64,000 nucleotides of DNA. Source: a virus. Lineage: Duplodnaviria > Heunggongvirae > Uroviricota > Caudoviricetes. Positions 3,452 through 64,000 of the stretch are shown here, piece after piece. The stretch's first letter is position 1, and every line of letters starts with the position of its first letter. Both the position numbers and the translations under genes were made by a program. The stretch covers positions 3,554-67,553 of the IMG/VR virus record IMGVR_UViG_2541047850_000005; one strand, 5' to 3'. The notes under the pieces were generated by a model. That model did not search any database. It saw only the letters and a program-made list of their open reading frames with translations, and was not told the DNA's origin.

Positions 3452-3604
3452 CACAACTCCGTAAACAACTTGTTTTCTCAATGTCGTAAATAATACCAGT
3501 AAGAAAACGGCTACAAAGCATATTGATCAGGTGCATGAGCGATATGCAGGTTCTTCCCTGCGGCTATAGAGAAATTAAGCCAGCAATGCTGGCTTTGGTT
3601 GGGA

Positions 3605-10059: not shown

Positions 10060-10079
10060 TACTGTTTATCTGTACAGTA
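10060..10079. promoter_or_regulatory. LexA (SOS) box upstream of the humD-like gene
   Basis: TACTGTTTATCTGTACAGTA equals CTGT-N8-ACAG, 19 bp upstream of the ATG. Confidence 0.8.
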
Positions 10080-13561: not shown

Positions 13562-13881
13562 GCTGATCCCTCTTTTTCTCCCCGGATAATTCTGTTGCAC
13601 ACATCCACACACTCGTCGCAGATGAAAACGGCGTCCCCAGCAATTAACTTTTTGACGGCGTACTGGGATTTGTTGCAGAAGCTGCAACAAAGTGTTCGCC
13701 TGACTGATAAGGATGGAGCGCCAGATGTCAGCCGCTCCATATCGTTCTTGCGACGCAATATCACACGGCTGAACTCAACCAGTTTCTCCGGGGATATCTC
13801 CTCCTCCGTAGCAAGCGCCTCTAATCGTTCGAGTATGTGGAAGGCTTTTTTCTGGGTAATTGCAGAATGCGATGTGGTCAT
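13558..13881 (-). CDS. stand-alone ClpX-type C4 zinc-finger protein (107 aa)
   Basis: [35 protein letters not shown] matches the ClpX N-terminal domain (CSFCGKSQHEVRKLIAG..ICDECVDLCNDII). No AAA+ module. Confidence 0.75.
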
Positions 13882-45717: not shown

Positions 45718-45719
45718 GA

Positions 45720-45992
45720 TCAGGCTCCTTTTGTTTCGTTGATTCGTTTTAAAGCGGCGGATTCGTCGAATACAATCGCATCGTGGTTAAGGTGTCTGGA
45801 TACACGAGCGAGGATTTTTACGACCTGCTCGCTGACTAATCCAAACTCGCGATCTGTCGCTTTCATTCCGGCAGCGTCTAGAATTGACGGCAGTGCGATG
45901 ACAGCGTACTCACCGTGATAAAAGACAATCTCTTTTGCCAGTTGGGTAGGGGTGGTTGTAGCGCCATTAATAATCGATTTAAGCATTAGCAA
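45720..45992 (-). CDS. hypothetical protein (90 aa)
   Basis: ORF coupled to both neighbours. Confidence 0.5.
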   Translation of the reverse strand: MLMLKSIINGATTTPTQLAKEIVFYHGEYAVIALPSILDAAGMKATDREFGLVSEQVVKILARVSRHLNHDAIVFDESAALKRINETKGA

Positions 45993-46981: not shown

Positions 46982-46990
46982 GTAATGGGA

Positions 46991-48019: not shown

Positions 48020-48136
48020 GTGTTTCTCCTTGTTGTGATTTGGCCGATGGCGCTATGCGCGTTGGGCTTTCGTTCATTCGTGGCTCTTTCGAGCTGTTTA
48101 ATGATAGATCAGTGCTTACTTATTATCTATCAAAAA

Positions 48137-48568
48137 TCAACGGGGAGTAATAAAGCGTTCAGAGCCTAATCGCTCTAATTCAACGATGGCCATCTTTGAC
48201 GCCTGAACGATCATGTCTCGGCGATGCGAAAAGGCGGCGACAGCATGTTTGTATATGTCTGCGATGTGCCGTGCTTCATCCAACTTCTGCCGTTTAGACA
48301 GATACTGTGGGTTTGTTTTAACCTTAGCGTCCAGTACAGATTCGTTGAACTTAATGCCGTTCATACTCAAGTTCTTACGCTCTGTGTCGTATAGCTTTGC
48401 TTCAACAGCTTCAAGGTTAAGTTTTGCTTCTGCGACACTTCTTTCTGCATGGGCGAGTTTTGAGCCATATTCCATCAACAGGCGGGGTTGTCTACGCCAG
48501 ACTTCCTCCAGATTGTCTCGGTCAAACTCGAGATCAGACATTATTTTCTCGTAAATATCGGTGATCAT
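48137..48568 (-). CDS. hypothetical coiled-coil protein (143 aa)
   Basis: ORF downstream of dnaE. Confidence 0.6.
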   Translation of the reverse strand: MITDIYEKIMSDLEFDRDNLEEVWRRQPRLLMEYGSKLAHAERSVAEAKLNLEAVEAKLYDTERKNLSMNGIKFNESVLDAKVKTNPQYLSKRQKLDEARHIADIYKHAVAAFSHRRDMIVQASKMAIVELERLGSERFITPR

Positions 48569-48693
48569 GTGCTTTCCTTTTTACTTATCATCTTATATTG
48601 ATTATATCATTGTGATGATAAGGCAAGGAGTTCGAGGATAGGGGATATGAGGGGATAAGAGAAAACATGGCCATAGAGGCCATGTTTATTGGA

Positions 48694-51600
48694 TCACGAC
48701 TTAATAGTTTCTGCTACGTCGGCTAATATCGCTTCTAGTCGTTCTCCCTCTTCAGGTCTGAAGTAAAGAATGTTGGGGTTAAACCCGTAAAAGACAGTAA
48801 CGTCAAGGTCTGGAAGATACTCCTTCCTGCCGACCAAATCGGATGGCTTGTTTTTGTTGTTAAACAATGCCGTTGCCCGGCTGCCACACGTCAGCACATA
48901 GGTCGGACGCACCAGATTGATCTCTTCACGTATAAAGTCGGTGAACTGGCCGATCTCGTCTTTGGTGTAGTCTTTTTCTTTGTCTTTAACCTTCTTGCAA
49001 ACGCCTGTGACATAGAGATCGCCCATGCGTAAATCTCCAGCCGTCAATAGCTTGGCCTTAAAGTCGTCGTATCCGTTCTCCATAAAGTAACCTGTTCGAG
49101 CATCATTGCCGTTCGCATTGTCCAGAATGATCATGATTTTCGGCTTAATACCAATGCTGGGGCGGATTAGTTCATCACCTAAGCCCATTTCAGCCGCCAT
49201 CCGTGTCATGAGCACGTTAATCTCAGCCGAACGTTTGGGGTTCATCTCAAACGGACGTGAGGCTTTAACTGCGTCTATGACAAGATTTCCCATCAATTCC
49301 GCTTGGTCGCGGAGACGTTCTGGATCAGTTGCTGGCAGACTACCTGGCTCGATGGATGCAAACGCACCTACTTTTCGCAGTGATTCGCGCACTCGACTAT
49401 TACAGGCACGTTTCTCGACAGCTTCTTCGAATTGCGCCAGTGACTCGAATTTGCCGCCAACTTTTTCTCGCGCTCTCATGATGGCTTGGCAGCCATTCTC
49501 AGAACACCCCTTCACAGCAGAGAAGGGTGCATACAGAACCTGGCTGCCATCTTCAAGCGTGCGGATCTCGATTCGGTTAGATGACACGTTAACGTCTGGT
49601 GGCAATACGCGAATACCATAGGTCAGCGCATCTTTAACCAGCCCTTGGTGTTTATCTTCGCCAAGAATAGTGAGAGCAGCAGCGAAAAACTCTGCGGGAT
49701 AATGAGTTTTCAACCACATAGATTGATAACTGATTAAGGAGTAAGCAACAGAGTGTGATTTGTTGAACTGGTAGGCACCATTTTTTTCGAATGCGGTCCA
49801 GATCTCCTTCGCTTTCATCTCTGATAGGCCAGGATGTGACGCTGTAACGCGTACTGCGTTTATAGGTAGTTTTGCGCCGTGCTCAAGTGCCTCTTCGACA
49901 GTTTTCAGAGTTCCGTCTTCGCATTTAAAATGTTCCGCACGGTGAATGCGCTGTGTAGTGCCATCTTCCAGCTCAACGTCTATCCAGCCAGCTTGAGCCT
50001 GAACGATGAACTTCTCGCCCATGCTCTTCATTTTTTCCATGTTCTTCTTACCGATTGCGGAACGCACACCGTCAGCTTCAGCCATTGTGAAGCCGGCAAG
50101 CAATCGAGTCGCGTTCATCGTCTGTTCCTGATAGAGAATCACGCCATTTGTTTCCGCGGTAAGTTCATCAAGAACGGGGTGTAATGATTCCGGCGTCATA
50201 AAGCCTTTGGCGACAGAAACATAGTCATCCAACATGCCTGATTGAATTGGCCCCGGCCGGAAGAGCGCAGTTGTAGCGACGACCGTTTTAAAGCTCATTG
50301 GCTCAATTCCACCACCTAAATCTTTAAGCAGCTTGCGCATTGGGCCTGATTCAAGCTGGAAAACACCTTGAGTGTACCCAGCAGCAAAACCATCCAGTAC
50401 CTTGCGATCTTCAAGAGAAATGGCATCAAGATTGATATCCTCACCTGTGTTCTCTTTAATGTAGCGTTTTGCACTATCGAGCAAATCGAGAGTCGCCAGG
50501 CCAAGTACATCCAGCTTAATTAGGCCCATAGCCTCGCAGTAACGCTTGTCAAATGCGATACAACGCGCGTCACCACGGCGTTCAACCGGTGTACGTTCTG
50601 TCAAGGGAACACCTGCTACGATCATCCCTGCCGCATGTCTGCCAAAGCCACGCATAATGCTTTGTAACTTACAGGCTGCATTGAATGCATCAGGATATTT
50701 TGTCGCGTATTTGTCGAGACTTGCTAGTTGTTCGCGCAGCTCTTCCAATGGAAGGCTATCATCCTCGACGTTCTTCAGTTCTTTTGATACCGCCATATCC
50801 GCAGCATCGACACCGTAAATACGCGCAGTGTCACGCAGCGCAGAAGCAGCGCCCAGATAGGTGAAGTTCGGAATACCGGCAACGTAATCTTCGCCATAGC
50901 GTTCATTCAGATACTCGATCACCTCATGACGACGTGCCTGACTGAAGTCTAAATCAGCATCCGGCAAGTCGAGACGCTCAGGGTTGATGAAACGCTCAAA
51001 CAGAAGACCGTGACGGATTGGGTCGACGTTGGTTATGCCTATGCACCACGCCACCAGAGAACCGGCAGAGGAACCACGACCAGGCCCAACGGGAATGCCA
51101 GTTTCACGACTATGATTCATCAGATCGCGCACCATCAGGAAGTAACCACAGAATCCCAGGCGAGTCAGCGTGTCCATTTCGTACTTTAGCCGCTCAACAT
51201 AAACCCTGTTCTCAGAAGCAGGTGGTGTGTATCCAAACTCTTTTGTGGTAAGACGTTTACGCAGCCCTGCAACAGCCAGTTTCATCAGCGTTGCAGGTTC
51301 GTCGTCTGCCATCTTGGGCAGTGCTGGTGGCAATTCATGCCAGCGCCATGTGCAGGCATCGATAATGGTATCCTGCGTTGTTGAGGCCATTGCAGCTGTT
51401 ACCGGCACATCCATGCGAACGGAGAAGGCTTTAAGCGACTCAAGGAGATGGCGGCGACCATTGACGGCGTTATCTCGCTGGTGGGGGATACGCAGACGAT
51501 GCGGCTGGTCGATTTTTATGTTGTTCGTAACCATGTGCGCAATGTCTTTAATGTCTGCATCGTCGATCGATTCGTAATAAGCGGGATAGAACGCTACTGG

Positions 51601-52212
51601 CTCTATTTTCAGTGCGCTGGCTACTTTCATCGCTCGGACGTTAATCTGGTCGTAGAATGGGGTAGGGTGCGGATAAACCACGCTATAGAAGTTGTCTTTT
51701 CCACCCGCTGTAATCAGTGTGCTTATGATTTTTGCAAAATCGTTGCGTTGGAACACGCTACCGATGTCGGAAGTGAGCAGGATGATGTTGCCTTTGGCAT
51801 ATGTAGAAACCAACTGTTCGAGCGAGAGACGCGGTACAAAGTAGAACTGTTCTCGTGTGTTGGCCACCGTCATTAGTTCGCAGATGTCGCGATATCCTTG
51901 CTCATTTTTAATTAGAGCGGTAAACGAGTAGTTACGTCCCCGCTCTAATGATTCCATACATCTCATAGATTCTTTAGCAAGTTTAGCACGGTGCTCGTAT
52001 GTGGGATCATCAACAATGTTTAGTTTCACACCACAAATAACCGCCATGTCGTCACCAGCGGCACGTTGTAGTGGAATAACGCTCGCAATATTCATGCTAT
52101 CTGCTGAAATTACAGCGGTGTAGCCAGCTTCTCTGGCAATCTTCACCGCGTTTTCTGCTTTTAAAGCCGACTCCCCAAGTGAGAAGTCAGTTCGAACCAT
52201 CAGTGCCTTCAT
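48694..52212 (-). CDS. dnaE: DNA polymerase III alpha-type (C-family) polymerase
   Basis: 1172 aa. GRGSSAGSLVAWCIGIT and PDADLDF palm motifs. The N-terminal PHP region lacks the usual His residues (MVRTDFSLGESAL). Confidence 0.93.
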   Translation of the reverse strand: MKALMVRTDFSLGESALKAENAVKIAREAGYTAVISADSMNIASVIPLQRAAGDDMAVICGVKLNIVDDPTYEHRAKLAKESMRCMESLERGRNYSFTALIKNEQGYRDICELMTVANTREQFYFVPRLSLEQLVSTYAKGNIILLTSDIGSVFQRNDFAKIISTLITAGGKDNFYSVVYPHPTPFYDQINVRAMKVASALKIEPVAFYPAYYESIDDADIKDIAHMVTNNIKIDQPHRLRIPHQRDNAVNGRRHLLESLKAFSVRMDVPVTAAMASTTQDTIIDACTWRWHELPPALPKMADDEPATLMKLAVAGLRKRLTTKEFGYTPPASENRVYVERLKYEMDTLTRLGFCGYFLMVRDLMNHSRETGIPVGPGRGSSAGSLVAWCIGITNVDPIRHGLLFERFINPERLDLPDADLDFSQARRHEVIEYLNERYGEDYVAGIPNFTYLGAASALRDTARIYGVDAADMAVSKELKNVEDDSLPLEELREQLASLDKYATKYPDAFNAACKLQSIMRGFGRHAAGMIVAGVPLTERTPVERRGDARCIAFDKRYCEAMGLIKLDVLGLATLDLLDSAKRYIKENTGEDINLDAISLEDRKVLDGFAAGYTQGVFQLESGPMRKLLKDLGGGIEPMSFKTVVATTALFRPGPIQSGMLDDYVSVAKGFMTPESLHPVLDELTAETNGVILYQEQTMNATRLLAGFTMAEADGVRSAIGKKNMEKMKSMGEKFIVQAQAGWIDVELEDGTTQRIHRAEHFKCEDGTLKTVEEALEHGAKLPINAVRVTASHPGLSEMKAKEIWTAFEKNGAYQFNKSHSVAYSLISYQSMWLKTHYPAEFFAAALTILGEDKHQGLVKDALTYGIRVLPPDVNVSSNRIEIRTLEDGSQVLYAPFSAVKGCSENGCQAIMRAREKVGGKFESLAQFEEAVEKRACNSRVRESLRKVGAFASIEPGSLPATDPERLRDQAELMGNLVIDAVKASRPFEMNPKRSAEINVLMTRMAAEMGLGDELIRPSIGIKPKIMIILDNANGNDARTGYFMENGYDDFKAKLLTAGDLRMGDLYVTGVCKKVKDKEKDYTKDEIGQFTDFIREEINLVRPTYVLTCGSRATALFNNKNKPSDLVGRKEYLPDLDVTVFYGFNPNILYFRPEEGERLEAILADVAETIKS

Positions 52213-52396
52213 GTGTTTTTACCTTTCTGGTTTTTTTGATTTTGTCATTTGGGAAGCCTACGAACTTCCCATGCATCGAAATCGCAACTTCTTTTGCTGA
52301 TTGGTGACAATAAGGCTTGTCTGGACACACCAGACAAGCCTTACCAGTTTCAGAAGCAGCGATAAGAGAGCCGAAACATCCTTTACGCACGATCAA
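52187..52396 (-). CDS. small Cys-rich ORF bridging the cobS-like gene and dnaE
   Basis: TTG or GTG start overlapping the cobS-like stop. CLVCPDKPYC. Overlaps the dnaE start by 26 nt. Uncertain. Confidence 0.35.
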   Translation of the reverse strand: MIVRKGCFGSLIAASETGKACLVCPDKPYCHQSAKEVAISMHGKFVGFPNDKIKKTRKVKTHEGTDGSN

Positions 52397-53628
52397 CCAA
52401 ATATTTTTTGAACAACTTCACGAGCCGCTTGTGCAGAAGCTGAAGGGAGTTTGTTAATGAAAGAACGCTCAATACCTGTCACAAAATCGCCTCGCATCAT
52501 TCCAATCTTGGCCGACAACAAAAGCTCACGAGGCCCAATCGGTTGGCTGATATTGTGTTCTTCGTATCCATCGCGAACGATACCGGCAAACTTAACCATC
52601 TTTTCAGCGTATTCATCCACGATGCCGGCATTTATCAACATGTTGATCTCTGCCTCTTTGCTCATGTATTTCACATTCGAAACGATGCCAAAACGCGAAA
52701 AGTTAGCGGCGTTCTGGATGTTTGTACCCTGGTACAAGCCGGTTTCATCACCAGATCCGTTCGTGTTGCCAGTGCCAATGAAAGCAAACCGTTCATGCGG
52801 AGTAATGCGACGCCATTCTGGAGTCGCCTCTTTGATGACCAACGCTTCACCTTCCAGCACTGGCTGATACACGCCAAGAATCTGTGGAAACGCAAAGTCG
52901 TATTCATCCGCGAGGTAAACCCAGCCATGCTTCATTGCGAGCGCAAGCAAACCAGGCTCGAAATACGTAGAGCCATCACGCGCCAGAATTTGTCCCGTAA
53001 CATGAGCCTCTTCCATTGATGCTGTATGTTGGGCACGGATTAACGGACGATTGAGCAAAGCACATAGTTGTGTAGGCAATGAAGATTTGCCTGTTCCTGC
53101 ATGACCCCACAAATAGCCTGGTATGCCAAGTTCAAGCATCATGAAAATGTCTTTGATCAGTTCGAAGTCGCCATATACGTATCCCTTCTTCACTTCTGGA
53201 ACGAACTCTGGAAACGGCGTATTGACGTTGACGCTAACCATGAGCGGCGTCCCACGTTTTGTTCCGAGTTCTTTCACCGTTACATTTAGCATTTCGTGAG
53301 CTGCGACCAGATCTGTCTTGTACTCAACTGTGCCTGTATAGCCTGGGCTATTGGTCACGCCAGATGATTTGGCCATTTCGCTTTTTTGCTCGGCACGTTT
53401 AGCTTGAATTGCATCAAGTGCCTTTTTCGATAGCGTTGGCTCATCTGGAAACTGCGTTGTGTACATTTTCAGTACGGTGTCAGGATCGGCATCTTTTACT
53501 GACTCAGGAATGCCCTCGCAATTACCATTGGCTACATGGGACTTAAAATAGTGAAATGATTTTCCGCACCACTTGCAAACAAGGTAATCAGAAGGATTTT
53601 TTTCATTTTGCAGTGCAGTAGTAGTCAT
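52393..53628 (-). CDS. CobS-like MoxR-family AAA+ ATPase with an N-terminal zinc ribbon
   Basis: WGHAGTGKSS, VYLADEYD and FIGTGNTNGSGDETGLYQGT are CobS-like. CKWCGK..C at the N-terminus. Confidence 0.85.
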   Translation of the reverse strand: MTTTALQNEKNPSDYLVCKWCGKSFHYFKSHVANGNCEGIPESVKDADPDTVLKMYTTQFPDEPTLSKKALDAIQAKRAEQKSEMAKSSGVTNSPGYTGTVEYKTDLVAAHEMLNVTVKELGTKRGTPLMVSVNVNTPFPEFVPEVKKGYVYGDFELIKDIFMMLELGIPGYLWGHAGTGKSSLPTQLCALLNRPLIRAQHTASMEEAHVTGQILARDGSTYFEPGLLALAMKHGWVYLADEYDFAFPQILGVYQPVLEGEALVIKEATPEWRRITPHERFAFIGTGNTNGSGDETGLYQGTNIQNAANFSRFGIVSNVKYMSKEAEINMLINAGIVDEYAEKMVKFAGIVRDGYEEHNISQPIGPRELLLSAKIGMMRGDFVTGIERSFINKLPSASAQAAREVVQKIFG

Positions 53629-53723
53629 GCGTTTTTCCTTTGTTTTCTAATGAGCTTTCAACTTCTTATATAAATATACCATCAAATATCGTAAGTGATT
53701 ACTTATCATTAAGGCTATTCTAA

Positions 53724-55832
53724 TCACTTCAAAATGATACGAGATAGTTCAGTAACTACAGATGAACCAAGACTATCAACGCTCGTTACCAGGGCATGGT
53801 TTGCGTAAAATCTCTCCGGTGCGTCAGTCATGATGCCAATTGCCATCAAATCAATGTCAGTCTGCGTTTCAATTTGCTTCGCAACCGAACGCAAATGAGC
53901 GTCAAAACCTCTCCCAACAGCCAACGGCTCGCCATCATTCAGAACAAGCATGATCTTCCTGTCCTCCATGCGACCGGAAAATAACGATGCAAGGCTGGCT
54001 ATGCTTTCACCATCCACGTTATTAAGAAGTGGGAATGTGTAGCCTACGCACCCCATACGTGAGCGAACTTCGCGAGAATTTACCTTTTCATTCCAATTTT
54101 TGATGATAGGTAGCATTAAAGATTCAAAGCGAGAGAACTCATACTTGACAGCCTTAAGTTCTCCTGCCGCCATATGACTACCAAATGTAGTGAAGCCGGT
54201 GATAATGTTGGGAACATTTATTCGATCAAGGGCATCGGCGATGGTATATGCACTTGCAAGAGCCAATTGTATCGTTATACCACTCATTGAACCTGATAAA
54301 TCAATCACTTGTTGAACACAGGCGTTAACGGCTTTAGATTCTTCTTTTTTACGAAACACGCGATCATCATTCATTGCTAATCTGTAGATACTAGAACCAT
54401 GAATGCGCCCCCGACGCTGGCCCGGTATAAACTGAACTCTGTTTCTGCTTGCTATTGCTCGCTCCAGGTCTTTTGCCAGCGTCGACGAAACACCTGACGA
54501 AAGATGCTTTTCAATATATTTGTCGAAGAGCTGGTTGCCTTCAGGAACGATGCGATAGCGGCTGATTGGATATCCTCCTAAATCAATATCGGAGAATGTT
54601 TTAATAAGCCGTTTGATATGGGCTTCTGCCTGATCAATCGAGCCGATGAAGTCGTATGAGCGATTGTATGGCCTGTATTCACTTTTCGAGCTTTCTGTTA
54701 ACTCGCTTTTAATCGTTTCGGATAGAGCATCTTCTGTCATGCCTCCGACTTCATCTTCTATGCTATCCAGCTCCTCTAAAGCCTCTTCCAGACTCATTTT
54801 TGACGTAGTTGGAATATCTGAAGAGCCGTCTTCTGTCGTTTTTCTTTTTTCGTGGTCAGCGGTTAATGATTCTGACGCCGCGTTATCAGAAGCATCAGAA
54901 TCTGATACCTCTTTATCATTTTCTGTATCATCGAATATTGTTTCTGATGATTCAGAATTATCTGAATCATCACTGTCGTTATTATCATGTTTGTGCTTAC
55001 TATGTGATTCTGATTTGATAGATTTGTGATTATCTAACAATGAGGGTGTCTCATGATCTTCGTTGTCTTCATTGTTTTCTCCAGAGGCATCCGTCTGGTC
55101 AGCGTCTGAAGGATCGGAAGTTTTTCCCGGAGCTGACTCCTTACCTTTGCTTTCACTTTCAGTGTCTTTGAGGATCTTAGCTATGGTCGCAGCCACCTTT
55201 ACACAATCCTCGGTGCAAGACATGTTACGCACGGCCACATCGATACCATGTTCTTTTAATAATGAAATTGGTTTCTCAATGACAGGCCAATATTCATCCA
55301 TGAAATCTACGAACGGTGCTTGGCCATCCCAGGCTCTTACAACCGGACAGAGAAAGAAGTTTAGAAAAAGCGCGCGCTGATCTTTGCCACAATAAGCAAT
55401 AGCCTCTGAAGCCTTTGGTTTAAAGACTTTTTCGATTATAAGGCGCTGAGTTGCCATCAGATTACGTCTTGTTCCGTTAAAGACCTGACCCATTTTTCGC
55501 TCGATGAACACGTCTTCTAAGGCATTCCATAGCGACCAGGAAGGAACGCGTCCTTTTTCTTTCATTTTGTTGGACACACGAATATCGGTAAACAAAATGT
55601 GAGCAACCTCATGATCGAGAAATCCGCGCACAGCATTCATCAATGCCGGTGTTGCGTTATCCGGGATTGATGGGATGTTTACGAGAATTGGCTCTCCATC
55701 ATCATTATAGCGTACATAAGCGTCGTCCCCTCGTTCTGCAACAGGGATGTTTTTACCTGAAAGGAGAGCGACTACTCGTTTTACACTGTCACGGAAGTCC
55801 TGAACCTCTTTGATGGAACGTTTTTTAGACAT
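53724..55832 (-). CDS. CobT-like vWA-domain protein with an N-terminal HExxH motif and an acidic linker
   Basis: C-terminal VIDLSGSMSG MIDAS. HEVAH at aa 74-78. D/S/E-rich segment at about aa 225-345. Confidence 0.8.
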   Translation of the reverse strand: MSKKRSIKEVQDFRDSVKRVVALLSGKNIPVAERGDDAYVRYNDDGEPILVNIPSIPDNATPALMNAVRGFLDHEVAHILFTDIRVSNKMKEKGRVPSWSLWNALEDVFIERKMGQVFNGTRRNLMATQRLIIEKVFKPKASEAIAYCGKDQRALFLNFFLCPVVRAWDGQAPFVDFMDEYWPVIEKPISLLKEHGIDVAVRNMSCTEDCVKVAATIAKILKDTESESKGKESAPGKTSDPSDADQTDASGENNEDNEDHETPSLLDNHKSIKSESHSKHKHDNNDSDDSDNSESSETIFDDTENDKEVSDSDASDNAASESLTADHEKRKTTEDGSSDIPTTSKMSLEEALEELDSIEDEVGGMTEDALSETIKSELTESSKSEYRPYNRSYDFIGSIDQAEAHIKRLIKTFSDIDLGGYPISRYRIVPEGNQLFDKYIEKHLSSGVSSTLAKDLERAIASRNRVQFIPGQRRGRIHGSSIYRLAMNDDRVFRKKEESKAVNACVQQVIDLSGSMSGITIQLALASAYTIADALDRINVPNIITGFTTFGSHMAAGELKAVKYEFSRFESLMLPIIKNWNEKVNSREVRSRMGCVGYTFPLLNNVDGESIASLASLFSGRMEDRKIMLVLNDGEPLAVGRGFDAHLRSVAKQIETQTDIDLMAIGIMTDAPERFYANHALVTSVDSLGSSVVTELSRIILK

Positions 55833-55930
55833 GGCTAATCCTTTGTTATGAAAACAAATTATTTACTAGTATGTTTAATGTAGCACTGCGCGAACAGGGA
55901 ACTAAGCCATTCGCGCAGGTAGCAGAGGGG

Positions 55931-56143
55931 TTAACAGGTTCTGACGGCTAAAGAGCCAGAGCCGGTATTGATAAGCGTGAAGCGTTTGTTATTAAGTAGG
56001 AATATAAAGGCTGTTGCGTCATGCATACCAACCTGAATCTGCTCATTTGGTAATTCGGTGAGAATGTCAGCTACACATTCATCAGCTAATTTTTCAACGT
56101 GTCCGATCTCAAGAGTGATTAGGCTGGAAATAGTTGTTTTCAT
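55931..56143 (-). CDS. hypothetical protein (70 aa), first leftward gene of the divergent control region
   Basis: ORF divergent from the XRE gene. Confidence 0.5.
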   Translation of the reverse strand: MKTTISSLITLEIGHVEKLADECVADILTELPNEQIQVGMHDATAFIFLLNNKRFTLINTGSGSLAVRTC

Positions 56144-56318
56144 TCAATCAATCCATTCTAACTTAAAATATGGTAGGGAGTACTATTAAATCTTATATCA
56201 TAATTGAACTTATCTATATCATATCTGAGTTAGTTTTGTTACATGTTATTAGTCGTTTTTCTCCATTAATGAATGCTGATTGGTTAATATTTGTGCCTGT
56301 AGAAAAAATGATTATATC

Positions 56319-56361
56319 TTTACAACCCTAACCTTTGATGTAATATCGGTAAGCACTTACC
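56319..56361 (+). promoter_or_regulatory. candidate promoter of the XRE gene with a motif-2 half-site palindrome at +1
   Basis: TTTACA-16-TAATAT, then GGTAAGCACTTACC at 56348-56361. Confidence 0.5.
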
Positions 56362-56390
56362 AGAGAGTTTAACGCGCAAAGGTCGCAATA

Positions 56391-56777
56391 ATGTCTGACA
56401 AAAACATTGAATTTATAGAAAGTCGCTATGCTGCTTTTATCGCAGGGCTGATTGAATCCTCACCTATGAGTCAGGCCCAAATAGCCAGACTTATTGGTTA
56501 TAAAAATGCCAACAACCTTTCTTTAATTAAAAGTGGTAAAATTCCTTTGCCTATCGATAAGGTTCGTCCGCTGGCGTTGGCGCTGGGTATTGAGCCAAGT
56601 CGTCTTATGATGATGGTGCTGGAAGAACGCCAACCTGAACTCGCAGCATTTTTATACAAAGAAGGCACCGCTCCTCTTAACGAGGACGAAAAACAGGTTC
56701 TTGCTGCATATAACGAGCGATTCGGTAAAGAGAAAGGCGCATCACAAAAGGTTGTTGAGGCCATAAAGTCTCTATGA
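56391..56777 (+). CDS. XRE-family helix-turn-helix regulator (repressor candidate)
   Basis: SQAQIARLIGYKNANNLSLIKSGK HTH. The only obvious HTH protein in the block. Confidence 0.8.
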   Translation: MSDKNIEFIESRYAAFIAGLIESSPMSQAQIARLIGYKNANNLSLIKSGKIPLPIDKVRPLALALGIEPSRLMMMVLEERQPELAAFLYKEGTAPLNEDEKQVLAAYNERFGKEKGASQKVVEAIKSL

Positions 56778-57875
56778 AAAATTTAGACGAATAAGCTCTG
56801 TTGATAGACGATCTCCCTTGAATTTGTGGTCAATTTCGTCTAAATCCGGTTGCTCTACGATTGATGCGATGTACGTTGAGAAACTTTCTAAGGCGTCTCG
56901 CATCTCGTCCATATAATCGTGCCGGTCGTAGACCCGATCTATCCCCTCAAGACTGTGGTTCATGATTTTGCGTGATACCTCCTGGCTTATGCCTAATGCT
57001 GGGAAGTAACTACGCGCAGTACGACGCAAATCTCGGGGTGTAAATGGCGCAAGCTCCATCAGTTCTGGTCGTTCCAGAATACGACGTAATGCCTGGGCTA
57101 TTGCCACTTTAGACATAGGAAGGTCTTTCCCGATTTTTTTATTCGAAGGCACGAGCCACTGGCTGTCTTTACCGTATTCGAACAACTCTTCAATGCATGT
57201 GCGCATTAATGTGCTTAAAGGCAGCGAATGCTCACGTGCTGACTTGTTTCTCTTGCCTTGATTCCAAACTCCACGCTTAAGATTGAACTCACTTTTTTTA
57301 GCCCTCAGTACTTCGTCAGGTCGTCTTGCTGATACAAGACACAGCCTGGCCGCCCATTTTGTACCAGCGCACACATTGAAGTAGTCCCATATATTCCAGA
57401 ACACCCATACCTCTGCGTCGGTCAGCTTCCGCTCGCGAGGTGTGGGCTTTGCGCCACCGGCAACTTTGTTTAGTGACATATCGTTTAACGGTGACACGTC
57501 TATCATCCCCTGGAAGGCGCACCAGCTAAGGAACTGCTTCATCAGAGAGAAAACGCGGCGGCCCATAACAATTTTGCCATCCAGTATTAGTGGGTTGACC
57601 AGTTGGTTCACCATGAACCTATTAATGTCACTTACTTTTACATCGGCAATGTGCGGCAAAACATGTATCAAAATACAATGAACAGCGATCTCTGGCCGAC
57701 GTCTGGTTATCAGCAGAGATAAGCGAGTGAATAACATGAATGCGTCCGAGAATTTCATATCATTGCTAACCTGCGAGATCATAACGGCCTGCATTTGAGA
57801 TGCTCTTTCGAGATACTCAATCGCCTCTTTTGAGGTGTTCTCAGCAGCGCGTGCTCTGTCAAAGCTATTTTTCAT
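56772..57875 (-). CDS. int: tyrosine recombinase/integrase
   Basis: ..RDLRRTARS.. and ..MNHSLEGIDRVYDRHDY (R, H-x-x-R-like, Y). Confidence 0.88.
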   Translation of the reverse strand: MKNSFDRARAAENTSKEAIEYLERASQMQAVMISQVSNDMKFSDAFMLFTRLSLLITRRRPEIAVHCILIHVLPHIADVKVSDINRFMVNQLVNPLILDGKIVMGRRVFSLMKQFLSWCAFQGMIDVSPLNDMSLNKVAGGAKPTPRERKLTDAEVWVFWNIWDYFNVCAGTKWAARLCLVSARRPDEVLRAKKSEFNLKRGVWNQGKRNKSAREHSLPLSTLMRTCIEELFEYGKDSQWLVPSNKKIGKDLPMSKVAIAQALRRILERPELMELAPFTPRDLRRTARSYFPALGISQEVSRKIMNHSLEGIDRVYDRHDYMDEMRDALESFSTYIASIVEQPDLDEIDHKFKGDRLSTELIRLNFS

Positions 57876-57901
57876 ATGACAATCACCGAGTTACGCCGAT
57901 T

Positions 57902-57921
57902 TACTGTATAAGTAAACAGTA
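57902..57921. promoter_or_regulatory. LexA (SOS) box overlapping the -10 of the recombinase gene
   Basis: TACTGTATAAGTAAACAGTA equals CTGT-N8-ACAG. TAATAT lies adjacent on the coding strand. Confidence 0.75.
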
Positions 57922-57969
57922 TATTAGGCATAGATTCTTATAGGATCAAGAGTAAAAGTAACTCATTTT

Positions 57970-58010
57970 CAGTAATGATTCCATACATAGTAGGTATGGA
58001 ATCATTACTG
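57970..58010. repeat. perfect 17-7-17 inverted repeat (candidate recombinase core site)
   Basis: CAGTAATGATTCCATAC atagtag GTATGGAATCATTACTG, 95 bp upstream of the int start. Confidence 0.8.
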
Positions 58011-58340
58011 CATTTTCAGCCAATTCTGTAGCGCCTACGACTACGCTAACGAAGCGTTCGGGGTAACAGTTCCTCCCATCGTTAACTTGGTGAATATGTA
58101 CTATTATCTACTAACTTAATAGGGCAATGTGATAAGGGGCATCAATTTGTATAGTCTGCATTCACTGCCCTTATAGCCAGGCGTGATAGTGGAAAAACGG
58201 TCAGGATCAAATCATCTTGGATGACAAAAAAACTATTGCAAAAAATAATAACTAGTATTTTCCACTTTCTGAGTATGTGTGGGTTTTTAATAAATACTGT
58301 CTATATATTATACCAAAAAATATAAATATTTAGATAATAA

Positions 58341-58365
58341 ATAAAAAGCCACAATGCGGTGTGGC
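58341..58365 (-). terminator. terminator of the fimbrial operon
   Basis: GCCACACCGCATTGTGGC followed by TTTTT on the minus strand. Confidence 0.75.
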
Positions 58366-58407
58366 AAGATCTGAAGGGGTATATCAGAGGGCTGGTTTAA
58401 TTGTGGG

Positions 58408-59190
58408 TTATTTTGAGATATATAAAGTTTTGTGTGGCTGTTTATTTTTCAGGTAAAATTGTTTAGGTGTCATATTGAAGTACCTCTTAAACACTGAGAT
58501 AAAGTATGCTTCACTTGTATATCCTAAACACTTGGCGACAAAACCAACTTTCCCAGTGTTGTGTTCTAATAGTTGTAACGCGTTTTTCATTTTAGTATCT
58601 AAAGTTAACTGTGTAAAAGTATAATTTTCCTCTTTTAGTCTTCTCCTCAATGAGGATTCTGAAGTATAAAGAGCGGAAGCCATTTCGCCTATACGCCATT
58701 GTTGAGTTAAGTTTTTTTCTAAGATGGATGATACTTTTTCTGAAATCAAAATTACTGGCATTGACTGCTTAAAGAAGTTTGTAAGTTCATAGGTGTCTAT
58801 GCGGCTGAATAAAAATAACAGTATGCTAACGCGTCTAAAACCTGATTTTTCATTTTTAAGTTGTCTAAAGGCTAACTCTTCTTCCGTGTTCAGACTTGGT
58901 CCGATAATTAATGGTGGTTTGTTGTTGGTCGGGTGTATATTAACGCAGGAGAGAAATTTCACAATAATTCCAATATCCTCATCTTGAATAGTATAAATTT
59001 CGTCAGCAGAAACACGTCCGCTCAAACCAACAATTTTACTCTTTTTGCTAATAATGAAAAATGTATTTTTTAAAAGTTCTATCTCTTGATGCTCATTCAA
59101 ATAAATTTTTATTGATTGATGTTTGACATAAACTAAGGTGTATTTATTAAATATCATGTTTTTAAATGGCAACATGGTATTTTCCATCAC
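58408..59190 (-). CDS. Rns/CfaD/AggR-like AraC-family regulator
   Basis: 260 aa, AT-rich. C-terminal double HTH (..SESSLRRRLKEEN.., ..GYTSEAYFISVFKRYFNMTPKQF). N-terminus resembles Rns. Confidence 0.85.
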   Translation of the reverse strand: MMENTMLPFKNMIFNKYTLVYVKHQSIKIYLNEHQEIELLKNTFFIISKKSKIVGLSGRVSADEIYTIQDEDIGIIVKFLSCVNIHPTNNKPPLIIGPSLNTEEELAFRQLKNEKSGFRRVSILLFLFSRIDTYELTNFFKQSMPVILISEKVSSILEKNLTQQWRIGEMASALYTSESSLRRRLKEENYTFTQLTLDTKMKNALQLLEHNTGKVGFVAKCLGYTSEAYFISVFKRYFNMTPKQFYLKNKQPHKTLYISK

Positions 59191-59246
59191 GCAAATTTTT
59201 ATATTACCACACCATGATTATGATGTGGTACATACTATATGAATAT

Positions 59247-61727
59247 CTATTCGCAAACTAGGGAGAGTCGACTTATCTTGCTTTGGTTTGCTTTTAATTC
59301 AAATCGTGCGGAGCATTGGCTTTCTTTATTGTCTCCCCATTGGACATGCATTTCACCTCTGTCAGGCATACCACTCATCCATACCTGCCCATCGTTCGAA
59401 ACAATGCTTGTTACACTGATATCTCCGGCTTCTCCTTTTAACGAGGCAATAGCGCCAAAAGGAACGAAATTACCATTTTTTCTAATCAAAGTAATAAGTG
59501 CCTTATGTCCAGATACTACATTAAATTTGGCGTGAACTAACGCCCCACGGGAAGGTACTACCGTTAAATCAGATTTAATTATTTCAGTTTCTTCATTAAC
59601 CTTGTTTACGTCTAGAGATATTCCATTTTTTCTATAGGGTGAAAGGTAAGGAACCACAGCATATCCATTGAAATCTGTGCTAATACCAATACCTCTTTTT
59701 ACTTTGATGTCTTCTACGCCATTAGTGTCGATCAATGCATTAGCTCCGTCAAGAGATAACGGCTGAGACAATACAATCCCTTTTTTGTGTACAACTACTC
59801 CACCGCTAATGCCAAATTGTAATTGTTTTGAGTTATGTTGATGTGACACTGTTGATTGTATCTCTCCCTTGGAGGATTTATATCTCAGCGTTGCATTACC
59901 TGAACTGGAGTCACGACTACCGCTATGATAACCTTCCATGAAACTATAATATAATTGCTGGTCTATAAAATAACCACTCACACCTGCTTGTGTATTTGTG
60001 CTATTTCCTGAATTGTATACATTTGTTGTCAATGATGCATTACTATAGTTCGAAAAAGAACTAAAAGGTACTGAAACTGAAAGATAAACAGATTTATCTA
60101 TATCTTCATATTGTGGTTGTTTATTATAGTTTAATGACAAGGATGTAAATACCTTTTTTACAGGAAACGAATACGATAGCCGAAATTGGCGACTATCTTT
60201 AGCATTTCTATAAGTAGTCCAGTCTGAGGATAAGGTCAATTGGTTAGTATTGCCAATACTTTGTTGCAACTGAGTGGTAATTCTATTTATTTTATTAAAT
60301 TTGGAATTATTACCAATCTTCATCTGTTGATAATCATTAAAAGAATAGAAGTTCTGTGAATTATAAAGTTGCTCTGTCAAATTCAAATAAGTACCTGTAG
60401 ACTCAAATCCTTTCGCAAACATTAGTCGAGTTACAGAACCATTTTCACTTTTTCCATTATCTTTAGACACCGTATCAGAATCGGAGTAGCTCAGATCTAA
60501 TGAAAAAGCACCAATTGAAGATATGTACTTGCCAACTCCAAATGAAGCCGAACTATAGTTTTCGGCAACAATTATTCCACCAAAGATTGTAGTGTCCCAT
60601 CCTATACCCCATGCCGTTGAATATTGTAAGAATAAGGGCTTGTCTTTGAATGAGCTATTGATATCTCTATACTTACCAATTGCTGCGTGATAACGCATGC
60701 GACCTTTACGTTGGAGAATCGGTAATGTTGATGATGACTGTGTAAAGTGTCTAATCTCGCCATTACTTTCTCGTATTTCGATATCCATATCCCCTCCATA
60801 CAAAGGGAAGACATCTTGCAGCTCGAATGGACCTGCAGGAACGTCACCTTGCCAGATTATCATATTATTTTGCTTTACGATTATTTGGGATGGAGTGAAT
60901 GCGATTCCTCTAATTGTAGGGCTGTAAGTGCTCATCCAAGGGACGAGCATGCCATCATCGGACCCTATTGATATCCCTTCAAACGGAAAGCTTTCAAACA
61001 CTCCATCATCAGTTGATGATTGTCCAAATGTCAATTGTCCACCTTGTCCGAAGCTATAGTCATGACGCAAGTAGGTATTCAAATTTGTCCAGCCATATTT
61101 ACTTGAATTCCAGTACCCATTATGTCTCACTCTCCACCCCCCGATATTCAGTCCACTGTTAATTGCCAGTGATTGATTGTTCTTGGATGTTGAGTTTAGC
61201 CTTTGTCGTACATCAGAATAACGGTAATTTACAAGCAGTGAGGTTTCACCATCATCCCATGCTTGAGGTGGTATTTCTGACCACACAGGACGATAGATCC
61301 AACTTTGTGGAATGTTTACACTTAGAATCTGCTTGCTCTTATTGAATTTTACTTCAAACCCTTTGATCTGTTTTGAAAGTTCATTAGAAAGAATACTGCC
61401 ATTAGTTATATTTAAATTCGTTACATCAACCCCCCACTTTTTTAGACTCGTCTCTGTAAGTAGAGGAACAACCTTTCCTTTTCCTGATGATACGAATCGG
61501 ATCGTTTCCGTACCGAATGATTCATTGTTGACTTTAACATCAACAAGATATTCTCCAGGAAGAACTCCGTCCGCATGAGAGAAATAACTTAAATCAGGAG
61601 CATTAACCTTTTTATCATTACCAATATTAATAAATGCAGGATCAAATGTGTAGTTGGTTGCTAACTCTTCTGCATTGCTATAATGTATGACAAAAAAGAC
61701 AAATAAGGCTATTTGTTTTGTTTTCAT
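59247..61727 (-). CDS. fimbrial outer-membrane usher
   Basis: 826 aa, signal peptide, FimD/PapC-like length and beta-rich sequence, positioned between chaperone and regulator. Confidence 0.92.
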   Translation of the reverse strand: MKTKQIALFVFFVIHYSNAEELATNYTFDPAFINIGNDKKVNAPDLSYFSHADGVLPGEYLVDVKVNNESFGTETIRFVSSGKGKVVPLLTETSLKKWGVDVTNLNITNGSILSNELSKQIKGFEVKFNKSKQILSVNIPQSWIYRPVWSEIPPQAWDDGETSLLVNYRYSDVRQRLNSTSKNNQSLAINSGLNIGGWRVRHNGYWNSSKYGWTNLNTYLRHDYSFGQGGQLTFGQSSTDDGVFESFPFEGISIGSDDGMLVPWMSTYSPTIRGIAFTPSQIIVKQNNMIIWQGDVPAGPFELQDVFPLYGGDMDIEIRESNGEIRHFTQSSSTLPILQRKGRMRYHAAIGKYRDINSSFKDKPLFLQYSTAWGIGWDTTIFGGIIVAENYSSASFGVGKYISSIGAFSLDLSYSDSDTVSKDNGKSENGSVTRLMFAKGFESTGTYLNLTEQLYNSQNFYSFNDYQQMKIGNNSKFNKINRITTQLQQSIGNTNQLTLSSDWTTYRNAKDSRQFRLSYSFPVKKVFTSLSLNYNKQPQYEDIDKSVYLSVSVPFSSFSNYSNASLTTNVYNSGNSTNTQAGVSGYFIDQQLYYSFMEGYHSGSRDSSSGNATLRYKSSKGEIQSTVSHQHNSKQLQFGISGGVVVHKKGIVLSQPLSLDGANALIDTNGVEDIKVKRGIGISTDFNGYAVVPYLSPYRKNGISLDVNKVNEETEIIKSDLTVVPSRGALVHAKFNVVSGHKALITLIRKNGNFVPFGAIASLKGEAGDISVTSIVSNDGQVWMSGMPDRGEMHVQWGDNKESQCSARFELKANQSKISRLSLVCE

Positions 61728-61762
61728 CGCGTTTTTCTATAAATTTGAGTTATTTCTTATCA

Positions 61763-62440
61763 TTAAAATGAAATGTTTCTGCTGGCGCTATTACCACCAA
61801 AATCATTAATGATTGAAAAAGACATAGAGTTAATATTATTCTCTCTCAATATTATATCAGAAAATGGCTTAATCATTTCTGGCTGCCTATTGGTATTTAA
61901 ATTATTAAACTTAAAATTTGCTATTGTGACAAAGTATGGAGTGGGGTTTTCTATTCTTATACCGCTTTTATTTTTCGACAAAATTAGTTTATCTTGCAAA
62001 TGCTCAATAGTTAAAGGGTCATTTATTTCTCTAGGCCTGTATATTAGCTTGATCTTAGTGTTTAAGGCCATTTGTACTTCAGTTTTTTCTTTTTTTGGTG
62101 GAATAGCAAGTACATTTATCGCAAATAAACTCTCTCTATCTTTTGGCAATCTTTCAATGCTGTCTAATTTATTTATTCTAAACTGGATATCGCTATTAGG
62201 TTCGATTCTATTCAGTGGGGGGGTTATGAAAAATGGAACATCTTTATTATCGTTTGAATAATAGTTATTCGCGGTAGCACGAATAAGCAAGACCATCTGT
62301 GACGATGTGTTTTTCATAGTGAATGACTGACTGTTGTTTTGAGAGTCAAAAACAACTCTAGAAACATCTAAAGTAATTCCCCCAGAGCTAGCTATAGCTC
62401 CAAATGAAATAAAAATAAAAAGTATTAATGTTTTATACAT
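61763..62440 (-). CDS. PapD-like periplasmic fimbrial chaperone
   Basis: 225 aa from MYKTLILFIF. ..RVVF.. and ..LIRA..PPL.R.EP.. are chaperone hallmarks. Confidence 0.9.
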   Translation of the reverse strand: MYKTLILFIFISFGAIASSGGITLDVSRVVFDSQNNSQSFTMKNTSSQMVLLIRATANNYYSNDNKDVPFFITPPLNRIEPNSDIQFRINKLDSIERLPKDRESLFAINVLAIPPKKEKTEVQMALNTKIKLIYRPREINDPLTIEHLQDKLILSKNKSGIRIENPTPYFVTIANFKFNNLNTNRQPEMIKPFSDIILRENNINSMSFSIINDFGGNSASRNISF

Positions 62441-62517
62441 TTTTCCACCCACAATTGGTGTAGAAAGTTGATAAAAGGCATATTATAAAAATATGCCTTT
62501 ATATTAATTAATCGATA

Positions 62518-63102
62518 TTAGTCATAGCTAACGGAGTATTGAATAACCGTGCTAAAGTTGCCAGAATATACTGCCCCATCAACTGTTGGAGCTGGATTAT
62601 TACCGCGCTTCAGAAGAACAGCGTACGCAGGGATACTTAAGCTACCTTGTGCATTTGTAGTACCCAAACCTCGTTCTGATCCGTCAAGATACCAGTAACC
62701 AGATTTACCACCGGATTGTGCGGTAAAACTTAGAGCAAGACCACTAACCTCTTTTCCGGAAGCATCCTGAACAAGCGCCTGGAAGGCATTACCTTGCGCA
62801 CGTTGAGGGGCAGTTACGGTATATTTCATCGCTGTGTTAGCTGGGCAGTTTTCCAGTTCAAATTGCCCTTGTTGCATGTTCTGAATTACTGAGTTGTGAG
62901 ACAGAGTAGCATAGTCAGCCACACTAACTGGATCAAATCTAATGTCTGTAGGCCAAGAGGTAACTGTACAAGTCGGTGACACAACAGAACCTGAAATAGT
63001 TGCCTGAGAGCTACCAACATTATTGGCTGCTGCCATAGACACCACTGAAGTACCCATTAGCAGGGTGCCTACCATCATGCGTACAACAAATTTTTTATTC
63101 AC
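62518..63102 (-). CDS. fimbrial major subunit
   Basis: 194 aa, signal peptide ..VVSMAAA, a Cys pair, and a C-terminal beta-strand ..STVIQYSVSYD. Confidence 0.85.
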   Translation of the reverse strand: MNKKFVVRMMVGTLLMGTSVVSMAAANNVGSSQATISGSVVSPTCTVTSWPTDIRFDPVSVADYATLSHNSVIQNMQQGQFELENCPANTAMKYTVTAPQRAQGNAFQALVQDASGKEVSGLALSFTAQSGGKSGYWYLDGSERGLGTTNAQGSLSIPAYAVLLKRGNNPAPTVDGAVYSGNFSTVIQYSVSYD

Positions 63103-63513
63103 GAAAATCTCCTAGAGAAAGCTTAGTTCATTTTTATTACTGGATCACTAGGATAACCAGCGAATTAATTTTCAATTAATAGCTTTCCATCTGTCAATTT
63201 TCGTCTTTATCTTAATCTAAACTCAGAAACATAAATTAAACTTCAAAAAACATTAAAATTAGTTCATTTCAGAATAATATTCTGATTGTTTTAATTGTGC
63301 TCATACAATATCTTTTTAAAAGAGATGAATTTTGATTTCATCTGAAAAATTTTTACCGCAAAACCAAACTGTTATCATAATAGAAAACTGAGTTTTGTTA
63401 CTCTGAAACTCCTTTTGAGCCCTAGACTGGCCCCCTGAATCTCCAGACAACCAATATCACTTAAATAAGTGATAGTCTTAATACTAGTTTTTAGACTAGT
63501 CATTGGAGAACAG

Positions 63514-63879
63514 ATGATTGATGTCTTAGGGCCGGAGAAACGCAGACGGCGTACCACACAGGAAAAGATCGCAATTGTTCAGCAGAGCTTTGAACCGGGG
63601 ATGACGGTCTCCCTCGTTGCCCGGCAACATGGTGTAGCAGCCAGCCAGTTATTTCTCTGGCGTAAGCAATACCAGGAAGGAAGTCTTACTGCTGTCGCCG
63701 CCGGAGAACAGGTTGTTCCTGCCTCTGAACTTGCTGCCGCCATGAAGCAGATTAAAGAACTCCAGCGCCTGCTCGGCAAGAAAACGATGGAAAATGAACT
63801 CCTCAAAGAAGCCGTTGAATATGGACGGGCAAAAAAGTGGATAGCGCACGCGCCCTTATTGCCCGGGGATGGGGAGTAA
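63514..63879 (+). CDS. insC: IS2 transposase OrfA
   Basis: 121 aa, [26 protein letters not shown]... A6G slippery site at 63831-63837. Confidence 0.92.
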
Positions 63880-64000
63880 GCTTAGTCAGCCGTTGTCTCC
63901 GGGTGTCGCGTGCGCAGTTGCACGTCATTCTCAGACGAACCGATGACTGGATGGATGGCCGCCGCAGTCGTCACACTGATGATACGGATGTGCTTCTCCG
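63837..64000 (+). CDS. insD: IS2 transposase OrfB, 5' part (truncated by window end)
   Basis: (V)[37 protein letters not shown].., in the -1 frame relative to insC. Confidence 0.8.

Follow-up and report, generated by a model that had tools for sequence, protein, structure and literature searches.

A tyrosine recombinase gene with a LexA box and a lox-like palindrome as a putative site-specific recombination module of SSU5/pHCM2-type phage-plasmids

Resolution of plasmid multimers by plasmid-encoded tyrosine recombinases is represented by ResD/rfsF of the F plasmid and Rsd/crs of Salmonella virulence plasmids, while the phage-plasmid P1 carries the Cre recombinase with its target loxP. In the present study, a comparable arrangement was analysed in a 64,000-nucleotide stretch of viral DNA (positions 3,554 to 67,553 of IMG/VR record IMGVR_UViG_2541047850_000005; the whole stretch is referred to as the window), which represents a phage-plasmid of the SSU5/pHCM2 type and is 99.93% identical to Escherichia phage PhiR41_1 across positions 44300-63422. 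A tyrosine recombinase gene (int), the LexA box at its predicted promoter and a palindrome upstream of it occupy positions 56772-58033 and would, on balance probably, constitute a self-contained lox-like recombinase/site module for multimer resolution or genome cyclisation, in which int is placed under SOS control. Phage-plasmids of the SSU5/pHCM2/pKpn/pMT1 type are common in E. coli, Klebsiella, Salmonella and Yersinia, to which they bring resistance and virulence cargo. Monomer maintenance and DNA-damage sensing by SSU5-type elements have remained undescribed, and the module would offer a concrete answer to the former and a lead on the latter. We found no paper on this recombinase (Int), its site or LexA control in SSU5/pHCM2/pMT1 elements, and the module does not appear to have been described previously, its unusual features being SOS control and the lone half-sites that are considered below.

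The features that make up the putative module are the following (window coordinates; aa, amino acids; nt, nucleotides; bp, base pairs):

56772-57875, minus strand: int, encoding a 367-aa tyrosine recombinase with core-binding and catalytic domains (open reading frame, domain profiles, PHROG 1 integrase)
57883-57887, minus strand: probable ribosome-binding site, read as GGTGA on the strand of int and 7 nt ahead of its ATG; aligned relatives keep GTGA
57902-57921, unstranded: LexA box TACTGTATAAGTAAACAGTA, over the -10/+1 region of the int promoter (sequence, consensus match, conservation)
57921-57926, minus strand: -10 hexamer TAATAT, kept in 10 of 12 aligned clade representatives
57944-57949, minus strand: -35 hexamer TTGATC, 17 nt from the -10 and likewise kept in 10 of the 12
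57970-58010, unstranded: 17-7-17 palindrome, the outer 4 bp of each arm being lineage-specific (sequence, PhiR41_1 comparison)
57974-57986, plus strand: left arm AATGATTCCATAC of the family-conserved core site (sequence, relatives)
57987-57993, unstranded: 7-nt asymmetric spacer ATAGTAG, the putative crossover region (sequence, spacer variants in relatives)
57994-58006, minus strand: right arm, GTATGGAATCATT on the plus strand (sequence, relatives)
58007-58033, plus strand: flank on the far side from int, a possible accessory element whose T-run and AATTCTG (58022-58028) keep a family-conserved distance (flank alignment)

An earlier sequence-only reading of the window had pointed to this locus as an SOS box overlapping the TAATAT -10 of a recombinase gene, together with a perfect 17-7-17 palindrome of simple lox-like geometry flanked on both sides by a repeat. 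The coordinates of box and palindrome proved exact. The palindrome is indeed perfect here, where approximately 4e-6 such palindromes would be expected in 64 kb; comparison with pG749_2, Cyrano and Klebsiella pJN2-26, however, shows that the family-conserved site is a 13-7-13 core, AATGATTCCATAC-N7-GTATGGAATCATT (57974-58006), situated 98 bp upstream of the int ATG. Only this element and PhiR41_1 were found to have arm bases 14-17 and the right-hand copy of the repeat CATTTTCAG. Both copies of that repeat are present as described (57964-57972 and 58011-58019), but they are lineage-specific, and the left copy is not strictly a flank, since it runs into the left arm and shares its first 3 nt. A reading of the repeat as a target-site duplication was rejected, as no insertion model was consistent with it and the only family-level feature is a same-strand T-run on both sides of the site. 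The segment 56303-58006 is 96-98% identical to approximately 200 E. coli plasmids of roughly 110 kb and approximately 74% identical to Klebsiella phage-plasmids, with phage Cyrano being 96% identical at this region; the homology with the E. coli plasmids stops at 58006, the outer edge of the right arm.

A scan for exact 12-bp arms around any 7-nt spacer matched approximately 100 viral contigs and seven species-representative genomes (Kluyvera, Chimaeribacter, Buttiauxella, Yersinia pestis). The spacer is 7 nt long in every case and takes more than 10 forms, among them ATAGTAG, TTAATAG, CTACCAA, CTTACAA, TATATAA, TTACATA, CTAAAGA and TTTATAG. In PhiR41_1 it is CTACTAT (13688-13694 of the stretch compared), the exact reverse complement of the ATAGTAG of the window, and this flip is recent, as it lies between perfect 17-bp arms in sequences that are otherwise 99.93% identical over 19 kb. 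Both spacer polarities relative to int occur across the family, which indicates that flipping recurs, probably by template switching or by recombination between the perfect arms.

Since such a scan fixes the arms, homologs were also sampled by protein, which yielded six lineages (Xenorhabdus, Providencia, Pantoea vagans, Pantoea allii, Rahnella and Erwinia) whose Int proteins are 43-49% identical to that of the window. All six possess a perfect palindrome with arms of 11-15 bp and a 7-nt spacer, located 17-146 bp upstream of int. Their arms co-vary with the recombinase: ATGATTCCATAC of the SSU5 clade is replaced by ATGACTCCAGAC, two changes that are symmetric in both arms, and the distant arm may be written (A)TGACTCCAGAC, two symmetric substitutions away from the arm of the window. 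The lox-like geometry proposed in the sequence-only reading is thus supported by every distant homolog sampled. In four of the six lineages, the genes reside on Pantoea, Erwinia and Rahnella replicons of 437-723 kb, where the neighbours are transporter, receptor and regulator genes and no HTH (helix-turn-helix), cobT, dnaE or other phage genes were found around int. As these loci are devoid of phage genes, int and the palindrome would form an autonomous two-part module, and since no other neighbour is kept on these replicons Int is the only constant candidate binder of the palindrome. We consider it likely that the palindrome is the core site of Int. Prediction of a target from a palindrome beside a recombinase gene has been validated for 8 of 17 Cre-type candidates (PMC10250229), a success rate that provides a fair prior for a predicted Int site and one that the co-variation observed here raises. 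The presence of the Int/site pair on Pantoea, Erwinia and Rahnella replicons would suggest that it may serve a general stability function in Enterobacterales.

The domain content of Int is that of a tyrosine recombinase, with a match to PF00589 (E=1e-9; 38.8 bits against a cutoff of 27.1) and a weak match to PF22022. R185, K211, R281-x-x-R284, H307 and Y316 are invariant across 35 homologs down to 43% identity, and because all catalytic residues are retained the recombinase chemistry is evidently under selection. Homologs of 340-395 aa that are no less than 43% identical make up a compact family, beyond which identity drops sharply to the P4-type integrases at 26-33%. The latter, which are the nearest outgroup, carry the arm-binding domain PF13356, which is absent from the Int family. 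An AlphaFold (AF2) model of Int (pLDDT 82.7), the N-terminal half of which is all helical, gave its best fold matches to lambda Int (residues 75-356), Tn1549 Int and Xer proteins, whereas Cre chains ranked 35th and lower, after lambda Int, Tn1549 Int, XerA/D/H and IntI; no solved structure was matched by the Int sequence at E values up to 1. With neither a sequence match nor closest fold similarity to P1 Cre, Int is a derivative of a P4-type integrase that has lost the arm-binding domain and is not a member of the Cre family. The designation of the locus as a Cre/lox-style module, as put forward in the sequence-only reading, consequently holds for the geometry of the site and not for the ancestry of the enzyme.

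The resemblance to Cre/loxP of P1 extends to several features, as in both cases a phage-plasmid carries a single tyrosine recombinase gene with an adjoining palindromic target, two inverted arms of approximately 13 bp enclose a short asymmetric spacer, and the enzyme is without an arm-binding domain; the role suggested for the Int system, dimer resolution and cyclisation, would also be the same. Differences are found in the origin of the enzyme, in the length of the spacer (7 nt as compared to 8), in the lone half-sites and conserved flank element of the Int system, and in the placement of int under a LexA box, which to our knowledge has not been described for cre. ResD/rfsF and Rsd/crs are also encoded on large low-copy plasmids with the recombinase site directly upstream of its gene, a likeness of arrangement that matches the int-plus-palindrome modules on the 437-723 kb replicons. 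Their site architectures differ from that of the Int site, and we know of no LexA control of either system. The P4-type or CP4-57-type integrases (PF13356 + PF22022 + PF00589) share with Int the central and catalytic domains and a C-terminal Y-x-R-x-D-Y-type motif, yet they possess the N-terminal arm-binding domain and integrate at chromosomal sites, often tRNA genes, whereas the Int clade combines a symmetric core site with the loss of that domain, and no integrated copy was found in the E. coli genomes searched.

Regarding the control of int, the LexA box differs from TACTG(TA)5CAGTA at three positions, all in the central, non-critical part, and leaves CTG-N10-CAG intact; at three or fewer mismatches, the window contains two matches where 0.03 would be expected from shuffled sequences. 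On the int-sense strand the box begins at the last base of the TAATAT hexamer of a promoter predicted from sequence, an overlap that agrees with the sequence-only reading and is conserved in relatives. In the clade comprising the E. coli, Klebsiella, Salmonella-type, Citrobacter and Yersinia elements, where the interval from palindrome to ATG measures 132-139 nt, CTG-N10-CAG is present in all 61 distinct sequences and CTGT-N8-ACAG in 57 of them, while variation is seen in the octamer inside the box, in the 17 nt between the two hexamers and in the 5' leader. Conserved hexamers and box amid drifting DNA are the footprint that would be expected of a working LexA-repressed promoter, and repression of int by LexA is very likely. 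LexA-regulated integron integrases (IntI) were reportedly described by Guerin et al. in 2009, and the two systems are alike in that a LexA box overlaps the promoter of a tyrosine recombinase gene, which would tie recombination to DNA damage. IntI, however, acts on attI and on folded single-stranded attC and shuffles cassettes, whereas the Int site is a simple palindrome in double-stranded DNA, with no cassette array at this locus.

The window contains only two strong LexA boxes, those of int and of a umuD-like gene, and exactly the same two are present in the complete 110-kb relative pG749_2. With no more than two strong boxes present, the one at int could conceivably be the path by which DNA damage leads to induction, through transcription antisense to the HTH gene that is considered below. 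SSU5-type elements, Cyrano among them, are induced by ciprofloxacin or mitomycin C (PMC9928086, PMC9600943). The second box (TACTGTTTATCTGTACAGTA, 10060-10079) is located 19 nt upstream of the umuD-like gene (9652-10041, minus strand), the product of which is a 129-aa S24 peptidase, a classical SOS-type gene.

In the mechanism that we favour, Int would bind the 13-7-13 palindrome (57974-58006) as a dimer, and two such sites, whether carried by a plasmid dimer or by the redundant termini of an infecting genome, would synapse, so that strand exchange across the 7-nt spacer would convert multimers to monomers or cyclise the genome, in analogy to Cre/loxP for P1 and ResD/rfsF for F. Since only identical spacers need to meet, the spacer would be free to drift, and as a side effect unlike spacers would keep related co-resident elements from fusing. 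Transcription of int would proceed from a sigma-70 promoter whose -10/+1 region lies under the LexA box, so expression is expected to be low, but not zero, in undamaged lysogens, and it would rise upon LexA cleavage, that is, when RecA-driven recombination makes multimers and lytic replication starts. If Int alone is capable of acting on a 33-bp site with a free 7-nt spacer, it would represent a new orthogonal recombinase for genome engineering. A lineage with 7-nt spacers would escape existing Cre-type searches, which look for 13-8-13 sites (PMC10250229).

Several observations weigh against this interpretation. The constancy of the arms in the exact-arm scan is partly by construction, and among the approximately 100 loci no contig with two full sites was seen, so that no dimer, cointegrate or site-flanked cassette was encountered. 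The promoter of int matches the sigma-70 consensus at only 8 of 12 positions, which places it below the threshold of a generic promoter scan, and the LexA box is absent from one subclade (in which the palindrome is approximately 45 bp from the ATG) and from the distant clade, which implies that LexA control is not intrinsic to the Int/site module. A conserved element approximately 11-23 nt outside the arm indicates that the site is perhaps less simple than loxP, and a plain lox-type model leaves the following lone half-site, and others of its kind, unexplained:

51946-51961, plus strand: lone half-site TAATGATTCCATACAT within dnaE, directed toward the palindrome (sequence; invariant in 23 dnaE contexts)

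Lone copies of the arm, (A)ATGATTCCATACATC, extend over 16 bp and occur 2.7-6 kb from the palindrome on either side of it. In pG749_2 (NZ_CP014490.1), they are located at 97048 (plus strand), 105813 (minus strand) and 106813 (minus strand) and nowhere else in its 110 kb, with two of them 2.7 and 3.7 kb from the palindrome on the side opposite dnaE; in PhiR41_1, a lone site is situated beyond the fimbrial cargo (19584-19596, minus strand, of the stretch compared). The dnaE copy is invariant, at synonymous positions too, in 23 distinct dnaE contexts. All 114 lone copies point toward the palindrome, although this rule constitutes weak evidence, given that the 114 copies represent only about three orthologous positions. 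Neither the distant clade, in which dnaE was checked and the corresponding part of DnaE is not conserved, nor the stand-alone modules have lone sites. Each continues with ATC, unlike any palindrome spacer, and the 7 nt that follow differ from the palindrome spacer and mostly from one another; because this continuation matches no palindrome spacer, the lone sites do not appear to be recombination partners or scars. Together with the flank element at +11 to +23, these sites, kilobases away, may be accessory sites at this locus, despite the absence of an arm-binding domain from Int, and the lone sites leave room for a second function or a second binding protein.

Other explanations of the lone sites were considered and rejected. 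Recombination scars would not be invariant across clades with a constant ATC and with one copy in frame in dnaE; retention as coding sequence alone is contradicted by the invariance of synonymous positions, by one site being non-coding and by another opening, in the other strand sense, a small open reading frame; and a genome-wide operator like the P1 C1 operators is at variance with the distribution of the motif, which in the 110-kb relative is confined to the palindrome and three lone sites within 6 kb of it. No known RNA family in Rfam was found at the palindrome or at the lone sites. In the Rci/sfx shufflon of IncI plasmids, an sfx site consists of a conserved 12-bp arm and a 7-bp spacer, the other arm not being conserved, and such one-armed sites formally resemble the lone half-sites. 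The latter, however, share no spacer with the palindrome, nor consistently with each other, and one of them resides in an essential-looking dnaE; no sign of shufflon-type inversion was seen, as gene order is constant in more than 100 loci. In pG749_2, an unannotated open reading frame for a hydrophobic product of 50 aa (6676-6827, minus strand, of the stretch compared) opens with one of the lone sites, which supplies its first five codons (MIPYI); the frame is preceded by AGGAG, and the N-terminus is conserved in other clades.

The flank away from int was assessed using 23 dissimilar flanks, in which information content peaks at +11 to +13 and at +18 to +21 and returns to background after approximately +24. 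The pattern, of approximately 23 nt, is a T-run followed by a AAATTCTGA- or GAAATCTG-like sequence, and similar motifs (ATTCTGA or AATCTG) are found in the flanks of the distant clade, including the stand-alone modules. Since this element is conserved an accessory factor may be involved, and 58007-58033 may be its binding element. Beyond the arm the sequences are mosaic: the 105 oriented loci fall into 15 int-side clusters and 32 far-side clusters, with the E. coli-type int side joined to six different right sides and one far-side cluster joined to four int-side clusters and two spacers. A junction of this kind would fit Int-mediated exchange and equally a conserved island that borders a plastic region. 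In either case the site marks the boundary of the cargo region, which helps to read gene pickup, such as that of the fimbrial operon in this element.

As regards alternative functions of the palindrome, the sequence-only reading had allowed for either dimer resolution or integration and excision, while discounting a tRNA-type attP. A role as the attP crossover for chromosomal integration and excision would accord with the annotation of int as an integrase and with the P4-type integrases as its nearest outgroup, and excision is a step for which induction of int by the SOS response would be apt. Across 5,426 complete E. coli genomes, however, the int region was matched at 254 places and the site region at 208, every one of them plasmid-borne and none chromosomal; Int is without the PF13356 domain, there is no tRNA gene in the window, and SSU5-type elements have been reported to be exclusively extrachromosomal (PMC9600943). 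A second full site (an attL/attR pair), the search for which the sequence-only reading had recommended, was found neither on the E. coli chromosomes nor on any contig among the approximately 100 loci. Close int homologs also occur on contigs of 0.2-0.9 Mb, possible integrated copies that fall outside these plasmid and chromosome counts. The spacer differs among relatives in the same host genus, for which reason no fixed attB overlap is implied, and a freely drifting spacer is what recombination of the site with itself would allow. On the basis of plasmid-only distribution and Int domain content the attP explanation was set aside as very improbable, and resolution appears favoured over integration. 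The possibility that the palindrome is only a terminator or RNA hairpin, which the sequence-only reading had itself raised against its proposal, is scarcely credible: a transcript of the palindrome would form a stable hairpin (-24.5 kcal/mol in this element, -16.8 kcal/mol with arms of 13 bp), and in many relatives a plus-strand T-run follows 9-10 nt downstream, but only 4 of 13 pairs in the AT-rich stem are G-C, the T-run is set apart from it, the terminator scan gives no call and there is no Rfam match at the palindrome. Furthermore, it is the arm sequence, beyond mere pairing, that remains constant across lineages with unalignable flanks; in relatives the palindrome separates the promoter region from the ATG or is found 17 bp away from the latter, positions at which a terminator active in both directions would shut int off; and the neighbouring genes have terminators of their own, namely a hairpin at 58348-58365 here and one after grxA in pG749_2. 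Stem composition, T-run position, arm conservation and placement relative to the int ATG thus led to rejection of the terminator explanation.

The remaining alternatives concern the role of Int or of its locus, and the first of these involves the gene that faces int:

56391-56777, plus strand: HTH regulator gene of 128 aa (open reading frame), convergent with int, the 3' ends overlapping by 6 bp

It is conceivable, though unlikely, that LexA-controlled transcription through int into this convergent gene lowers the level of a repressor, by collision or antisense RNA, and tips the element towards the lytic cycle; such a switch could also act alongside a resolution module. The tail-to-tail overlap (56772-56777) is kept in phage-plasmid relatives as far as Xenorhabdus and Providencia, the terminator scan found no convincing terminator within or after int, and the int LexA box, one of two strong boxes in the 110-kb relative, adjoins the putative immunity region. 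The 128-aa HTH protein is without an S24 self-cleavage domain, SSU5-type elements are SOS-inducible, and the phage-plasmids N15 and GIL01 use host LexA for induction (PMC11652158). Against this, the distant clade and one subclade keep the convergent layout without a LexA box, and the HTH protein is only a putative lysogeny repressor. An exchange or capture of accessory DNA by Int on the side away from int, here the fimbrial operon, in a manner resembling integrons or cassette exchange, is quite improbable. In its favour, mosaic sequences meet at the palindrome, homology breaks off precisely where the right arm does, and in PhiR41_1 the right arm and a lone half-site of the same orientation enclose the fimbrial cargo; but none of approximately 100 loci has cargo between two full sites, the ATC of the lone sites matches no palindrome spacer, which makes strand exchange with them unlikely, a conserved island beside a plastic region is a natural breakpoint for ordinary or illegitimate recombination, and insertion sequence (IS) remnants are present at the far end of the cargo. 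We give similarly little credence to palindrome and half-sites being operators or architectural sites, at which Int would be an autoregulator or roadblock or a replication, partition or repression protein would bind. The identical 16-bp half-sites, which in 110 kb are confined to three more positions no further than 6 kb from the palindrome, the conservation of a half-site at synonymous positions in dnaE, and the location of the palindrome 17-50 bp from the int ATG in some relatives, where occupancy would affect the promoter, are in keeping with such a role. The modules on the 437-723 kb replicons, however, have kept nothing but int and the palindrome, so that a phage-specific binding protein is excluded, the catalytic residues of Int are all invariant, and the putative HTH operators (TATATCATA repeats in 56144-56390) are unrelated in sequence to the arms. 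A broader reading, in which the palindrome is the hub of a larger Int-bound architecture that combines accessory-module exchange, spacer compatibility classes, SOS timing and an antisense induction switch, would accommodate the three lone half-sites, one in dnaE and two beyond the cargo region, all of which face the palindrome; we regard it as distinctly unlikely.

The genes around the module are arranged, on the minus strand, in the order dnaE, a cobS-like gene, a cobT-like gene and a 70-aa open reading frame, which are followed by the convergent plus-strand HTH gene and then int. Cyrano lysogens express the HTH gene, which is annotated there as a putative repressor (PMC9928086). An AT-rich divergent control region (56144-56390) separates the HTH gene from the 70-aa open reading frame and contains direct repeats (TATATCATAATTGA and TATATCATATCTGA, especially at 56194-56228) as candidate operators for the HTH protein.

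To the right of the palindrome, a change to AT-rich fimbrial DNA had been reported in the sequence-only reading, and the GC content does fall from 0.42-0.49 over int to 0.30-0.41. The DNA in question is a chaperone-usher fimbrial operon (58408-63105) with an AraC/GadW-like regulator gene (58408-59190), an usher gene (59247-61727) and then chaperone and subunit genes, and it stands where typical relatives have a grxA, tRNA and ligase region. In searches of complete E. coli genomes, PLSDB plasmids and GenBank phages, PhiR41_1 provided the only close match to positions 57960-59300, the best match otherwise being an usher fragment with 83% identity. Positions 63423-64000 presumably correspond to the left end of an IS2-like element, as recognised from its sequence (TAGACTGGCCCCCTGAATCTCC...); this end is located in AT-rich DNA upstream of a fimbrial subunit gene, and PhiR41_1 is without it there. 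Host-like housekeeping homologs were also noted beside the umuD-like gene, namely ApbC/Mrp in the window (8514-9614, plus strand) and, in pG749_2 (52295-55586), also metG.

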